Assembly (NCBI RefSeq): GCF_024521635.1
Contig: NW_026250435.1
Span: 248,001 to 312,000 of the forward strand
From: Tricharina praecox
Lineage: Eukaryota
Direction: 5' to 3'
DNA length: 64,000 bases
The notes under the pieces were generated by a model. It was not told the origin of the DNA, ran no database searches, and worked only from the letters and a program-made list of their open reading frames with translations. A program made the position numbers and the translations under genes. Shown in pieces: positions 3,220-12,127 of the stretch (its first letter is position 1; each line of letters starts with the position of its first letter).

Positions 3220-4377
3220 CTACTCCTCAAATACAAACACCTGCTTCTTTCCGCTATATGCCTGCCCACTCTTCGCGACCGCAGCCTTGAGTACATCCTC
3301 CTTGGTCTCACTGTTCCACACCGTCTTCTCGACTGGCACGTCCTTGAACTCTCCACGCTGAATCATCCCAAAGATCTCCTCGACCATTTCGCGCTTCGCC
3401 TCCGGGTTGGCATCGCTCCATCTCGACACCCAGAATCCATGAGCATGAATGTCCTTAAAGATCAGGGAGCTTGCCGAAACCATGAGCGGCTGTTTAGCCA
3501 TAGCGCCATACGTAACGACATGCCCGCCCTCGCCCATGTGTCGAATCAGCTCCGTTGCGGACTTGCCGCCAACGCAGTTAAGGCCCAGCTGGAGCCCTTT
3601 CCCACCAGTCAACTCCTTCATCTGCTTCCGGAACGTCCGGTCCGCCAGCTCCTCCTCGGTGATGACCATGTCCGCGCCCAGCGCCTTCAGTTCCTCCTTT
3701 AGCGCGTCGATCTCGGGCCGCTTGCGAACAACGTTGACACTCTTCAGCCCCCACAGCCTGCCCAGCTGGATCGCCGCCCTACCCACGCCCGAGTTCCCGC
3801 CGTTCTGGATGAACCAGTCACCCTTCTCCAGCGGCTTGAAGTTCTTCAACATGCAGTACGCCGTGCACGGGTTGACGCTCACCGTCGCGGCGGACACGAC
3901 TCCCAGGTCTCGGAACTTCTCCGGGATCTTGAGAAGGTTCTTATCCGAGGCGAGGGCATGTGTTCGCCACGTTCCGAACGCCGTGTGCTTCATGATCGCA
4001 CGGTCTCCGGGCTTAAAGTCCTTCACGTTTGCGCCCACGGAGACAACTTCAACTACGCCCTCGTTTCCGGGGACCGCCGCGGGTGTGGGAGTCCCCAGGT
4101 TGATGGTCATTGCCGGCTTGGTGGGGTAGACCCCCTCGATCTGGTTGATGTCTGCCGGATTGATCGGCGCGGCGAGGAATTTGATGACGATCTCGGAACC
4201 GTAGACGGGAGAAATCGAATGGGAGTGGAGCTTCAGGACGTCGCTGGGCTGGCCGTAGTCACTGAAGATCAGCGCTTTCGCTTGGGTGTAGCCGAAGGTG
4301 GAGGCATGGCGGCGAAGAGCGGTAGCGTGGAGTCGTGTTGGCGTAGGCCGTAGGAGGAGGCGAAGTGTTGAGGCCAT
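3220..4377 (-). CDS. ETR1: Mitochondrial trans-2-enoyl-[ACP/CoA] reductase (MDR family), intronless, 385 aa
   Basis: Arg-rich presequence MASTLRLLLRP. Motifs APINPADINQIEGVYP, GNEGV, SVNPCTAY, QNGGNSGVG, LNCVGG, VTYGAM and GFWV are typical of Etr1/MECR. Confidence 0.93.
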   Translation of the reverse strand: MASTLRLLLRPTPTRLHATALRRHASTFGYTQAKALIFSDYGQPSDVLKLHSHSISPVYGSEIVIKFLAAPINPADINQIEGVYPTKPAMTINLGTPTPAAVPGNEGVVEVVSVGANVKDFKPGDRAIMKHTAFGTWRTHALASDKNLLKIPEKFRDLGVVSAATVSVNPCTAYCMLKNFKPLEKGDWFIQNGGNSGVGRAAIQLGRLWGLKSVNVVRKRPEIDALKEELKALGADMVITEEELADRTFRKQMKELTGGKGLQLGLNCVGGKSATELIRHMGEGGHVVTYGAMAKQPLMVSASSLIFKDIHAHGFWVSRWSDANPEAKREMVEEIFGMIQRGEFKDVPVEKTVWNSETKEDVLKAAVAKSGQAYSGKKQVFVFEE

Positions 4378-5681: not shown

Positions 5682-5959
5682 GGATGGCGTTGTGTATGTA
5701 CTTGATATCCAGGCTGCGGGGGGGGAGGGGTTTTGCTTTTGGTTTCGGCGTCAATTTTTGATCTCTTTCCTACATTGTAAGCTTTACGAATGATATGATG
5801 ACGATGATGACCGCCTTGATGCTTTGCGCAGAATAGCAGTAATAGAACCAATCTAAAGGATACGAGTGCACCGTGATGGCAAAGAATAAAACACCAATCC
5901 CCAAACAAACCGGGTAGATCCAAACCCCAATAAACTACGTTCGCCCCACGCAACGCACA

Positions 5960-6449: not shown

Positions 6450-7349
6450 GGCCAGGGGGGTGGTGGTAGTTGTTGTGGTCGTGGTGGGATGGTGCTGGTA
6501 GGATGGTGCTGGTAGGATGATACTGGTCAGTGGTAACGACGGTGTGGTGTTGGATTAGAGTAGGAGCTAGGCCCCGCGTTTAGTGCCCATGGCCGGTGTC
6601 GACCTGAGTGGCGCTCCGCCACATGTCAGCTTGGATCGATAAGGTGGAGTATGTAAACGCCAGTTCCCGCCGCCCGAGCCTCACAAGCCACCCTCTATTG
6701 TTTGCTTTTTTCTTTCGTTTTTGAAGAAGATTTCCCGATGGGAAATAAAAAGATAAATACTCGGTTTTATATTTACTACTTCTTACGGCCGCAACCTACT
6801 CTATCGACGGTATGCATTGTAATCAATCTCTCATTGTCAGAACAGCTCGCCCGTCGAGTTTTATTGGAGGCAAAGCGGACGCCAGTCCAAGTCCTGTTTT
6901 CTATGCGGGGATCTGAAGATTTCGGAGGATTATGTTTGCATGTGGTCTGAACAACGGCGCTAGTTACACCGAGCATCACTCGCCGAGGAAGATATCGTGA
7001 AGCGATCTGATTTGCGCACGTAGCGAGCCGGGACTGAAGATTGAAACAAGACGGCCACTATGGACTTACTGAGGAAGTCTCTGGTAGAAAGGGCTGATAC
7101 CTACCTAATTAAAAGGATCATGGTGTTGAATGTAACTAATTGTAGTTGCTGGGTGTGCGGGACGTCACGTTCTAGGTATTGCGTGGGTCTGGTTGGTGTA
7201 TCTCATAATACCACAGATTCAATCGCGCGCAGGTCTTCGCCGAGACCAGGCCAAATCAATCGGAGCCCAGACCAAATCGACAGGAGCCCAATCACGCCAT
7301 GGAATGTCCCGACCGTCCATACGATTGCGTCTGAAGACCATGGGCACAT

Positions 7350-7357
7350 CTATAAAT
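7350..7357 (+). promoter_or_regulatory. TATA box of the small CAAX gene
   Basis: CTATAAAT about 150 nt upstream of ATG 7504, followed by a CA-rich leader. Confidence 0.55.
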
Positions 7358-7503
7358 CTCGGGCCATCCCCCCCTTCTCCATCTCCACTCATAACCTCCA
7401 GCATCAAAATCAGCTATCGAACAGTATAACAAAGCTTCCACACATCATCCATCGAACAACATCACCACAAAGCTTCCACACATTCGATACGAACGTTTTC
7501 ACG

Positions 7504-7748
7504 ATGCAGCCAAACGACAACATCATCACCACGATCATAGTCGCCATCGCTACAGCCCCGACGACAAGTTCACCCGCCGTGCGGGACGACGATATCGACA
7601 CCGATCCGGTCGATATGGGACGGCGCAATGGTCAGGGTATGTACCATACTTCTTCTCTCGCCGCTTCGCCTTCTGCTCTGCGGTTTCTGGCTGTGGACGC
7701 TAACGATAGGATTACTGTGAAATAGTATTCATGTGCATCATAATGTAA
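7504..7748 (+). CDS. Putative a-factor-type lipopeptide pheromone precursor, 51 aa, CAAX end (exons 7504-7636 and 7726-7748)
   Basis: Donor G|GTATGT at 7637, branch GCTAAC at 7699-7704 and acceptor AATAG at 7725 give MQPNDNIITTIIVAIATAPTTSSPAVRDDDIDTDPVDMGRRNGQVFMCIIM*. Confidence 0.65.
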
Positions 7749-8603
7749 AGTCGCTCGCTCACCCTCGTCGCCTACGAAACGAACCAAATTTACGACAACC
7801 GGCATAATTCCGAATCCCGAGCCCTTGTCGCTGGCCGTCGACATCAAGTTTATCAGCGAATATTTACATTTTGGTTCACTTGGGCGGAGAGGGTTGTTGG
7901 GATTTCAGCGCTGAGATTGGGGGCATTTTCGCTGGCGTTTATTTTCTGGGGTTCTTTTATGGAAGGCGCCTCTGTGTTGCGCCATGTATGTGTTATGGCT
8001 GGCGGACACGATGCAGTCCGGCCGTTAAACAGGAAATGTTTTCTTTTCTGTTTTTGATTTTGCTTTTCTATCCCAAGTCTTGTCTTGTCGGTCCGTCTCT
8101 TTTTCAACACATCAGACATTAATGGACCCCTTTTCTTTTCTTTGCTTTTCTATTCAATTGAATCATTTTCTAAATTTTCAACTCGTACATACCCGGTGGC
8201 AGGTATCTCAGTAGATGAGGGAAGTGCATTATTTTCCTCCCCCCGGCATTTGCGGGTTGAAGACCACGTTACTTGGGAGTCTTTGGTGATGTGGATTTCA
8301 CTTCAGCTTTCCGCCCGAGTCAGGAGCCAGTACTCTAAGGACATTTACGGGCCAATTTCAAGGCGTTTTAAGATCGGCTCGGAGGGGGTTCGATATGCAC
8401 GTAGAAGCTGTGCATGTTGTCCACAGCCAGCCCCCGCCCGACTATCGGTAGCTGCGAGTGGCCCGGCCTGGTCGATAAGATGGATTGACTGCCTGCTGCT
8501 TCGGCTGGTTGAAACAGCTTGGGGTGATACGGAAGTTGACAACAAAGTATGTACTGGTGTCATGACGACTAAAGCTCGAGTGAGACTTCGCAGTACTTAC
8601 TGA

Positions 8604-8686
8604 ATACTGTATAGTGAAGGGGAGGGTAAAAAATACGCTTTTTGGCGTATTTTTTACCCCCCCTCCCCCCCTTCACTACACAGTAT
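8604..8686. mobile_element. Fold-back inverted repeat, MITE-like, with TA at both ends
   Basis: ATACTGTATAGTGAAGGGG..GGGTAAAAAATACGC pairs with GCGTATTTTTTACCC..CCCCTTCACTACACAGTAT around a short T-rich loop. Confidence 0.55.
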
Positions 8687-9099
8687 GGATAACTCTACAA
8701 GTAAATCCACACACGCAAACCGATAAGCCTGGCTGCGTGGCCGGCTGAGCCAAGCAAATATCTAGCCCGGCCGGCCGCTTCAAGTAGCTTGGCTACGAAG
8801 CCCGGCCTTTCATGGCATAGGATGTGATTGTCCGATCTTATCTGATAACCGGCCTAGCGGCATCTGTCATCTGTTTTTCATCTAATTATATCTGCTCCAT
8901 CGGACCTTATCTCCTTCATCTAACCTTATCGGTGTCACGAGTCCGCCATCCGCCATCCGCAGCTCCCAGCTCCGACTCAGCCTACCAATCCGTCTACCGC
9001 CCACAGCAACCTCAACTCGTCTTCCACTTCGTCCACGAATCCGTCGCCCATACACATAACCGAACCTACCGTCCGACTGACCTCTACACTCCTACAGCC

Positions 9100-9921
9100 A
9101 TGTCCGGCCTCGAGAAAGCCCTTTTCCAGCTCAAAGTACGTCATCGTTCGGGCGTGCACCACCCCCGCCATCACTGGCTAACACCACGCACAGTTCACGG
9201 CCAAGTCACTGAACCGACAAGCCGCGAAAGCCGGCAAAGAGGAGACGGCCGAGAAAGCCAAGATCAAGAAGGCACGCCTCTAACATACCTCTTGTAACTT
9301 TTGACGTCCGCGCTAATGGTGGGGCGGGGGACGACAGGCGATGCAGCAGGGAAACAACGACATCGCCAAACTCTACGCGCAGAACGCAATCCGCAAACAG
9401 AACGAGCGGCTGAACCTTCTCCGGCTCGCGTCGCGCATCGATGCGGTCGCGAGTAGGGTGCAGACTGCTGTCACCATGAGACAGGTCTCCGGGAGCATGG
9501 CGAACGTGGTCAAGGGCATGGATGCGGCCATGAAGACGATGAATCTTGAGAGGGTGAGCCACGCGTGCGACGGTGGAAGTGAGATGCTGACTTGATGTCG
9601 GTGACAGATCTCGGTCGTGATGGACAAATTCGAGCAGCAGTTCGAGGACTTGGATGTTGCTGTGGGATACTACGAGAATGCCACTAGCTCTGCCACGGCC
9701 GTTGGGACGCCTCAGGAGGACGTGGATCGCCTCATGGGGAAGATTGCGGATGAGGCCGGGCTCGAGATGGAGCAGGACATGCCCGAGGCTACCAAGCACA
9801 AGGTCGGGCCGACTGAGCAGGAGGAGAATGGGTATGTACTCGTGTTCCGTGCGCGGACGGTTCTCTGGACTAACGGGACACATGTAGGCTTAATGAGCGG
9901 CTGCGGGCTCTGAGGGGGTAG
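9100..9921 (+). CDS. DID2: ESCRT-III-associated Did2/Vps46 (CHMP1), 5 exons
   Basis: [25 protein letters not shown]...[24 protein letters not shown]...[21 protein letters not shown]...[13 protein letters not shown], ending in the MIM1-like [10 protein letters not shown]. Confidence 0.93.
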
Positions 9922-10841
9922 ACCAATGATGGATAGCCTGGCAGGCTACGAAGGAAATCTGGGAACACCAGGTTGTCGATTACGGGCGTTTAGGCGTTGG
10001 TGCTTGGTCGTTTGGGGTTGCCCTTGTGTGCTCGTTTCTCATACTCGTCTCGATTATCCTACTACCTACTATAGCAAGAGCGGGGAGCGATGACAGGAAA
10101 TTTCAAGGAGTTTCTTTTCACGAATAGGGTTTATATCTGAAAGCAGTCAATTCTTTTATACACTACCATCCGTTCTACTTGTCGGCGCCTCCTTCTGCTG
10201 ATCTGCAATCCGGGAATGGTGTTGGTCCTCTTCGAATGCGCTCACGCTTCGGGGATGATTATGGCAGCTTCGATCGCTTCCGTTCTACTTGTTGCTTGTG
10301 GTACCCCAGCGACCGAGCCAACCCCCCTGGACGTTCCGTTATCAACTGCGTGTCGCCTGTCACGACTACATATCGCAATTACTAATACTGAACTGGCGCC
10401 TCCTTTCCCCCCTCAGTCCTGTTTGCGATCCCGATATCGGCTCGGCTCGACAGCGTCTCTATCCCGAGCTGGGTCCCTCGGCCGGCCGGCGTCGTGAATA
10501 CGCGGGAGTTCCAGTTCCGAGTGACACAACCACTGACCGGATGGCTTCTCGGAAAGAGTTGGCGCAGGGGTTCTTCTTCTTCTTCTTCTTCTTTTTCTTC
10601 GCGCAGTGCGGAAGCATTCACCGTGTTATGCGTACATACAACTTACGATTTGCGAAGTGGACGCTGCTAATATGCGTCTCTGGGTCTGAGTTTGAGTCTG
10701 AGTCTGAGTCTCTTCCGCCGGAACGTCCATTGCAATTAGATATTAAAAGATAAAAGCCCAGTGTACAGCCGGAGTATCGGCTACCTATCGCCATATCGAA
10801 TCCCGCTCCCCCTCCCCCCCCCCCCCCCCCACGCCACGCCA

Positions 10842-12127
10842 CTACTCGTAATCATAGCACAGCAGCCCCTTCTTATACCCCTTCGGCACGGTTCCCATCG
10901 GATCCATCACGCGGGCGACCGGGATCTTGAGGCGATCACCGGCGAGCGGGCCAAGATCGATGACATAATCCAGCGTGACGTTGCCCTCGGGGATGGTGGC
11001 CAGGAGGCCGTCGGAAATGGGCAGTCGCGGCCGGATCGGGTTGCCGACAGCAAAGAGCTTGGCGCTCGCGGACTGCTGCCACTTCGCCCAGATGCGGTCG
11101 ATGTTGCCGTGCAGCAGGTAGAATACTGGGTCGCCGGGGGAGACCCACGTGTCGAGCATCTAAGCCGGGGGGCGTTAGTTGTCGTGAGCGAAGAGGGAGG
11201 GAGGGGGGAAAGGGGAGGAGCTTACGTCTCCGGCCACGGCCATGTGCCCGGCATTGTGCATTCCCAGATCGAACGTAAAGTTCCCGTTCCCCTCCAGCAG
11301 CTCGGCAAAGATCTCGTAGGTGGGATGAGCGAGGGCGTTGTTCTCCTCCTGCGCGTTCCACCAGCGGCTCGCGGGCGCCTGGATGATGTTGCGCGTGATG
11401 CAGCGCTCCTGGTACGAGCTGTCGTTGTTGTAGCCGAGGTGGATGGTGAGGTCCTTGAACGGGCCGTCCTGGATGCACCCGCCGCCGTCGGCGGTGATGT
11501 TGATGAACGGGATCAACGCGGTCGGGTCGAATGCGCCGTTGCCGCCGAAGCCGAACTCCGTGTCGAATACGGGCGACGCAAAGATGTCGGCGTTGTCTGC
11601 CTTCTGGTCCCAGTACCTTTTGTACATATCATATCAGACTCCGCCGTTGGCATTCCGGGAGGGGGAACTCACGGAATAGTGCCCTCGTAGCCACACTCAA
11701 CGCGCAACACCCGCTCGTACTCGAAAAGGAACAGCCTGTGCCACGGCAGGAAGTGGCCGACTCCATGGATAGTCGGCATGACTCTCTGATGTGTCCAGAT
11801 GAAGTCCTCCCAGCGGTTAGTGACGCCGGCGGCGTACTCGTTCAGCTTCGGTGGCGTGTTGATCATGCACTTGACGGCGTTGATGTAGGCGGTCTTGTCG
11901 GATGTGGCGAGTGATCCCCTGTATTTGTGGTCAGTCGAGTGTTCCTCGAGACGGACCGGGACCGGGGAAAATTCGATTGGATTGGGTCGGATTGGATTCA
12001 CGTACCAGCTCTTGCGTACGGTGGGGTTCGTACATTTCTTTGACGCAACACAGGTCGACGATGGCCGTGCAGACGCAGTAGCCGCGAAGCCCAGGACGAG
12101 GGTGGTCAGGAAGCTGGGAAGATGCAT
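10842..12127 (-). CDS. Secreted tyrosinase-like type-3 di-copper protein, 4 exons
   Basis: Signal peptide. CuA His residues in WTH..IHG..FLPWHR, the ECGYEGTIPYWD motif, GGGCIQDGPF, and CuB HNAGH...SPGDPVFYLLHGNIDRIW. Confidence 0.9.

Follow-up and report, generated by a model that had tools for sequence, protein, structure and literature searches.

An expressed, spliced CaaX peptide gene of a Pyronemataceae-like cup fungus as a candidate a-type lipopeptide mating pheromone precursor

The locus described here is a genuine micro-gene with two exons in the genome of a Pyronemataceae-like cup fungus (Pezizomycetes), located at 7404–8128 of the window, by which we mean the whole 64-kb stretch of DNA that was analysed. 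It lies between a divergently transcribed C2H2 zinc-finger ORF and a Snf7-family gene (Pfam Snf7), the latter labelled DID2 in an earlier sequence-only reading of this DNA. That reading had proposed a hidden, spliced gene for a lipopeptide mating pheromone precursor at this place, and the TATA box, CA-rich leader, ATG, donor, branch and acceptor that it named are all in place when the sequence is read again. The features of the locus are as follows:

7352–7357, + strand: TATAAA box, read from the sequence and of presumed function; the first base of the cDNA contig lies 47 nt downstream
7404–7503, + strand: 5′ UTR at its minimum extent, from the start of the run X1 contig at 7404; A/C-rich and without ATG
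7504–7506, + strand: start codon ATG, the first AUG in the transcript, with A at −3
7504–7636, + strand: coding exon 1, 44 codons plus 1 nt (phase-1 boundary), conserved in the related protein P0123
7637–7725, + strand: intron of 89 nt, seen as a GT..AG joint in the X1 contig
7637–7642, + strand: donor GTATGT, read from the sequence
7699–7704, + strand: branch GCTAAC, with the branch A at 7703
7708–7709, + strand: unused AG inside the intron, read from the sequence
7723–7725, + strand: acceptor TAG, with its AG at 7724–7725
7726–7748, + strand: coding part of exon 2, 23 nt, in which a Val codon is completed and followed by F-M-C-I-I-M and TAA
7734–7745, + strand: CaaX box CIIM, with the stop TAA at 7746–7748
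7749–8128, + strand: 3′ UTR of at least 380 nt, T-rich (33% T), up to the end of the X1 contig at 8128

Joining 7636 to 7726 gives an ORF of 51 codons that ends in CIIM-stop. The transcript is laid out as a 5′ UTR of at least 100 nt, an ORF of 156 nt and a 3′ UTR of at least 380 nt, the last being a minimum, as contigs cannot reveal the true 3′ end. From N- to C-terminus, the product of exon 1 runs through a hydrophobic core, an S/T-rich stretch, an acidic stretch and GRR. Hydrophobicity reaches its maximum of 3.0 at residues 7–15 (Kyte-Doolittle, 9-residue window) and the hydrophobic run spans about 12 residues. S or T accounts for 8 of the 51 residues, and the peptide has a single Cys (Cys48) and one dibasic site, with neither an internal repeat nor a repeated unit. 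What makes the layout unusual is that a conserved, signal-peptide-like N-terminus is followed by an acidic pro-region and a conserved dibasic site, with the CaaX box sitting on a terminal coding exon of 23 nt. The frame changes across the intron, which is how the ORF track misses the CaaX exon, as had been pointed out from the sequence. Retention of the intron gives a 73-aa frame whose stop is TAG 7723–7725, i.e. the acceptor itself. Use of the AG at 7708–7709 as acceptor gives, in silico, a peptide ending in ...GLL-stop without CaaX, reproducing the alternative product that the sequence-only reading had derived.

The leader (7404–7503) is made up of 38% A and 31% C by composition count and contains a duplicated 26-nt segment (7420–7445 and 7458–7483, 85% alike), each copy of which holds one ACAAAG (at 7429 and 7467). 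Because ACAAAG is common across the window (44 observed vs 28.8 expected), these two copies carry no weight. Towards the other end of the transcript, a 20-nt inverted repeat of 80% complementarity is found between the CaaX-coding end (7730–7749) and the 3′ UTR (7863–7882), 113 nt apart, and may be due to chance. Rfam returned no match within 7404–8128.

Contigs of public runs were aligned to positions 6900–10100 of the window. In run X1, a contig of 636 nt (depth 8.72) consists of 7404–7636 joined to 7726–8128 with 0 mismatches and 0 gaps; the 89 nt skipped at the joint are bounded by GT..AG and are exactly the predicted intron 7637–7725. Because these signals are canonical in that orientation, the transcript is assigned to the + strand. 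The joint is carried by one contig in one run, X1, while run X2 contributed one 153-nt contig at the locus, covering 7423–7575 only. The RNA type of both runs is presumed and not declared; we take them as cDNA because three short GT..AG introns of the neighbouring Snf7-family gene (9135/9194, 9552/9607 and 9830/9887) have been removed in X1 and X2 alike.

For each bin between 7328 and 8076, the spliced contig alone explains the depth seen in X1. X1 presented no intron-retaining contig and none using the AG at 7709, with the proviso that contigs may drop rare forms. The check suggested beforehand, the 7636/7726 junction against 7636/7710, hence returned a contig with the former and none with the latter, and the spliced 51-aa CaaX product foreseen from the sequence is encoded across the exact junction found in X1. 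No contig at 6900–10100 was found in run X3, and two contigs of run X4, with matches of 37–39 nt at less than 90% likeness, were treated as spurious. No divergent contig at ≥80% likeness was seen on the peptide gene in X1 or X2. The depth of the peptide contig is far below that of the Snf7-family-gene contigs, a figure to be read with the reservation that contig depth cannot rank genes. The CaaX peptide is probably made.

An enoyl-thioester reductase gene adjacent to the locus (single exon, 3220–4377, − strand) is closest to Pyronemataceae, with identities of 78% to Sphaerosporella brunnea, 74% to Trichophaea hybrida, 72% to Pyronema domesticum and 71% to Wilcoxina mikolae; two further reductase relatives reach 87% and 80%. 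We therefore place the window in Pezizomycetes and not among the Sordariomycetes, the group that had served as frame of reference in the sequence-only reading. A Pfam scan of 45 ORF translations (9 around the locus and 36 of the 59 ORFs of at least 180 aa) matched housekeeping families in the window: importin, Swi3, Ski2, a complex I subunit, Med17, SOD, uricase, RICTOR and tyrosinase. No MAT or pheromone-receptor family was found among these 45 translations, and the pheromone-response motif TGAAACA was not enriched in the window (8 observed vs 7.85 expected).

Exon 1 was compared exhaustively by HMMER with 1.84 billion representative proteins, and three matches were returned at E ≤ 0.001: the intron-retained form of the window itself, a repeat protein of low complexity that was disregarded, and P0123, a protein of 68 aa (E 1.3e-5) from an 18,560-nt JGI contig, known only as protein. 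Between the read-through forms of P0123 and the window, 30 of 56 positions are identical in BLASTP, with a single one-codon in-frame gap. The shared blocks are the M-Q-P-x-D-N-I start, the hydrophobic core, S-P-A-V-x-D-D-D and V-D-x-G-R-R. Likeness falls off where the window has its donor site, and P0123 continues for 23 codons to a stop; judging from the protein alone, P0123 too would have been read through an intron, one that lies in the same phase. Exon 1 thereby behaves as coding sequence in a second species, in a comparison that covers exon 1 only, the second exon of P0123 and any CaaX lying beyond the known protein.

Among the annotated proteins of named Pyronemataceae, the same HMMER search (1.84 billion representatives) returned no homologue, which is weak evidence because such genes are often left unannotated. 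A word-indexed protein search with the 44-aa exon 1 query retrieved only the intron-retained form of the window itself (P0001, 1 of 1 candidate), and a two-sequence profile search retrieved only P0123 and P0001 among 9 candidates. ESM Atlas gave no usable match for exon 1, and the intron-retained 73-aa form matched 0 Pfam families.

Metagenomes were scanned with the neighbouring enoyl reductase, giving 31 loci, of which 4 reach at least 70% identity. The closest of these four (L001, 87% in the reductase) is only 1,476 nt long. In the other three (L002–L004, 70–71% in the reductase, 12–21 kb each), the divergent pair formed by MCP1 and the reductase is kept, for instance at 5774–9522 of L002. 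Their zinc-finger gene follows the reductase and shares its strand, i.e. it lies on the other side as compared with the window, and no Snf7-family gene is present in their 12–21 kb. Because these three loci are rearranged, the neighbourhood of the peptide gene is not conserved at the 70–71% distance. A tblastn search of the metagenome relatives' loci with the exon 1 peptide gave no significant match (best E 0.68), and neither C[VILT][VILM]M-stop nor any conserved exon 1 motif occurs in their 53,154 bases.

The anatomy of the gene matches the operational definition of an a-type precursor in recent surveys, in which the precursor has fewer than 100 aa, a terminal CaaX and evidence of expression (PMC10569646). 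Here the precursor has 51 codons from the first AUG; CIIM-stop (7734–7748) places a CaaX directly before the stop, with an X that favours farnesyl; and transcription is seen in the spliced 636-nt X1 contig and the 153-nt X2 contig. That the gene encodes a farnesylated a-factor-type lipopeptide pheromone precursor is, in our judgement, evenly poised. What stands of the precursor first proposed from the sequence is a short, expressed and spliced gene that ends in CaaX and has a long 3′ UTR, whereas the splice switch and the dibasic processing proposed with it find no support.

If the gene does encode such a precursor, Cys48 would be farnesylated by the cytosolic farnesyltransferase, a farnesyl group being expected because the C-terminal residue of the CaaX is Met. 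IIM would then be removed by a protease of the Rce1/Ste24 type, and the new C-terminal Cys would be methyl-esterified by a Ste14-type enzyme. Trimming of the N-terminal extension would follow, and the Asn-Gly (N42-G43) located six residues before Cys48 would fit the yeast a-factor N-X rule. A Ste6-type ABC transporter would then carry the short, hydrophobic lipopeptide out of the cell, and a mating partner would perceive it through its Ste3/PRE1-type receptor. The preference for farnesyl when the CaaX ends in Met is a rule quoted in PMC3068285.

Several findings sit less comfortably with a pheromone precursor. The conserved hydrophobic core and the S-P-A/V behind it, a junction that by eye looks like a cleavage site, resemble a cleavable signal peptide and to that extent would be at odds with the cytosolic a-factor route. 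On the favourable side, a hydrophobic N-terminus is present here, and such an N-terminus together with a CaaX, in the absence of a signal peptide, serves as criterion for a-pheromones in Ceratocystidaceae (PMC13037118). The dibasic RR had been read as a processing site in front of the mature peptide; apart from the cytosolic route just mentioned, it is not evidence for processing because the Kex2 sites of the Trichoderma reesei h-type precursor HPP1 are dispensable, mutation of both having left fertility unabolished (PMC3068285). We also count against the pheromone reading that the Asn of the putative N-X site is not kept in P0123, where the corresponding position is Gly, that there is no GY motif, that response motifs are not enriched and that no receptor or MAT gene was found in the window.

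Among known systems, the putative Leotiomycete a-factor (Botrytis cinerea BCIN_13g03330 family; Wilson et al. 2023) is described as a precursor of 45–64 aa whose N-terminal part is rich in S/T and which mostly ends in C-x-x-M (PMC10569646). The peptide described here falls within that range with its 51 aa, its CaaX ends in M and its N-terminal part is S/T-rich. As portrayed in the survey, the Leotiomycete genes are likewise usually unannotated, and the family was found by CaaX and expression and not by homology. Unlike them, the present gene belongs to another fungal class and lacks the GY motif near the C-terminus that is reported for 87 Leotiomycete candidates. This comparison was made with the published description and not by sequence alignment.

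Sordariomycete a-type precursors are roughly 21–28 aa long, with about twice that length seen here. The present gene also differs from them in having an intron that parts the CaaX-coding end from the rest and an N-terminus with a conserved hydrophobic core. Like Neurospora crassa mfa-1, Sordaria macrospora ppg2, Magnaporthe grisea MF1-1 and Cryphonectria parasitica Mf2-1, it has a C-aliphatic-aliphatic-M end and a long 3′ UTR, and like the Sordariomycete a-type mRNAs it has a single short ORF at its 5′ end; long 3′ UTRs are described as usual in a-type genes (mfa-1, mf2-1, MF1-1 and ppg2; PMC3068285). The transcript layout is also close to that of T. reesei hpp1, whose 591-nt cDNA comprises a 5′ UTR, ORF and 3′ UTR of 82, 144 and 347 nt and encodes a 48-aa product (PMC3068285), against at least 100, 156 and at least 380 nt here. 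In both products a CaaX that ends in M is preceded by a dibasic site. The defining trait of HPP1 is a threefold (L/I)GC(S/T)VM motif, whose last copy forms the CaaX (PMC3068285), unlike the peptide described here with its one Cys and no repeat. An h-type precursor was excluded on this ground, the triple repeat being absent and the Cys single, and the alpha-type, in which mature peptides repeated between Kex2/Ste13 sites come after a signal peptide, was likewise rejected with one dibasic site and no repeated mature unit.

In yeasts, N-X cleavage of lipopeptide pheromones falls 5–20 residues before the Cys, and the lipopeptide pheromone genes of Schizosaccharomyces pombe have introns (Srikant preprint). 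The present gene resembles a-factor MFA1/2 of Saccharomyces cerevisiae and M-factor of S. pombe in the CaaX route proposed here, in N42-G43 falling into the 5–20 range and, as for S. pombe, in its intron. Multi-copy genes are typical of yeasts, unlike the one copy visible in the window, no sequence similarity would be expected, and P0123 lacks the Asn. Basidiomycete Mfa/Phb precursors, the comparison drawn in the sequence-only reading, are similar in their length of a few tens of residues, in a pro-region that is acidic or charged and in their CaaX. Mfa/Phb genes adjoin Ste3-type receptor genes in mating-type loci; here, by contrast, no receptor family was present among the 45 window ORFs tested, and the organism is an ascomycete.

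Other explanations of the same gene have to be weighed against the pheromone reading. Pheromone pro-regions are usually free to vary, and in this gene conservation with P0123 is strongest in the hydrophobic core and the acidic stretch. This would suit a small prenylated peptide unrelated to mating, acting intracellularly with both ends membrane-bound and an acidic linker between them. The 64-kb surroundings, made up of housekeeping genes, would suit it as well, and CaaX is not exclusive to pheromones in the account of PMC10569646. We nevertheless hold it unlikely, the hydrophobic run of about 12 residues being short for a membrane helix and no known family matching (0 families in Pfam and no usable match in ESM Atlas). 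A more sceptical view is that the ORF is fortuitous, the RNA being a spliced non-coding or low-level promoter-associated transcript that acquired its CaaX by chance. There is a selection effect to consider, as the earlier reader looked for CaaX in the window, and very large protein libraries yielded a single relative. Over six frames, the loose farnesylation-type CaaX-stop is as common as chance would have it, with 7 observed vs 5.0 ± 2.2 expected from shuffles, and is not enriched. Yet C[VILT][VILM]M-stop, the strict type of known ascomycete a-pheromones, occurs once in the six frames of the 64-kb window, at this gene, where 100 shuffles lead one to expect 0.11; the CIIM-stop ends the frame opened by the first AUG, across a splice whose verification did not depend on the earlier reader's choice; and the exon 1 frame is open in P0123 with a single in-frame gap. 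A fortuitous ORF is accordingly rated as rather improbable, below the non-mating peptide.

The features of the N-terminus can also be taken literally, as those of a secretory propeptide whose first 25 residues form a signal peptide cut after S-P-A, with a Kex2-type cut after RR releasing an unprenylated product of 10 residues; in the ER lumen the CaaX would be inaccessible and go unused. P0123 keeps the hydrophobic core as well as the S-P-A-V junction and G-R-R, and a signal peptide with dibasic sites is the alpha-type layout as the survey gives it (PMC10569646). What makes this improbable, more so than the fortuitous ORF, is that no positive charge precedes the hydrophobic core, that the would-be mature peptide is present in a single copy without repeats, and that a CIIM terminus, at 0.11 expected per window, would have to be coincidence. 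The sequence-only reading had further raised the idea that a choice of the AG at 7709 instead of 7725 might turn prenylation on or off, the 7709 product being the one without CaaX. That AG follows the branch A at 7703 by only 6 nt, and fungal splicing normally skips AGs so near the branch A. No contig uses it, the sole contig across the intron using 7725, and such a switch is very improbable.

The pheromone reading, if correct, would bear on a long-standing gap. In filamentous ascomycetes, Ste3-type receptors imply a lipopeptide pheromone, the gene for which is hard to find. According to the 2023 survey (PMC10569646), Sordariomycetes were the only filamentous ascomycetes in which an a-factor gene had been found before the Leotiomycete candidates, which are there called the first outside that class. 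The literature that we searched, which covers few subscription journals and is not proof of absence, reports no a-type pheromone gene for Pezizomycetes, and in none of its texts are CAAX and Pezizomycetes paired. An expressed CaaX micro-gene is therewith a concrete candidate in the class to which truffles, morels and cup fungi belong, and were the reading true, this would be the first a-type pheromone precursor for Pezizomycetes. That it is the first a-type lipopeptide mating pheromone precursor identified in this class, with the unusual layout noted above, we propose tentatively, at slightly less than an even chance. Because the CaaX lies on a separate exon and in another reading frame, sieves anchored on CaaX and stop would miss genes of this kind. 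With its CaaX on a 23-nt terminal coding exon, the layout escapes homology searches and ORF-based CaaX sieves alike.

The surroundings of the gene presented some further features. In the Snf7-family gene, a second version of 9232–9798 is found in both X1 and X2 at approximately equal depth, with 14 differences within 9336–9526 (about 7%), mostly at third codon positions, and these runs thus seem to contain two related genomes or haplotypes. An almost perfect palindrome at 8603–8687, about 85 nt long and containing a variable run of G/C, resembles a miniature inverted-repeat element and has weak miRNA-precursor matches in Rfam on both strands, all far below the gathering scores. X1 and X2 contigs cover it at a depth of 88–128, extend on either side into sequence that is unrelated and differ in length at 8617–8628, which suggests a multi-copy, transcribed element. 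Between about 10460 and 10760, a long homopolymer A/T tract is found along with a dinucleotide-type microsatellite, the ORF translations of which read as poly-K/poly-F and ES/TQ-repeat. The tyrosinase gene at 10842–12127 (− strand) is seen as three ORF pieces, presumably split by introns, all three of which match Pfam Tyrosinase.
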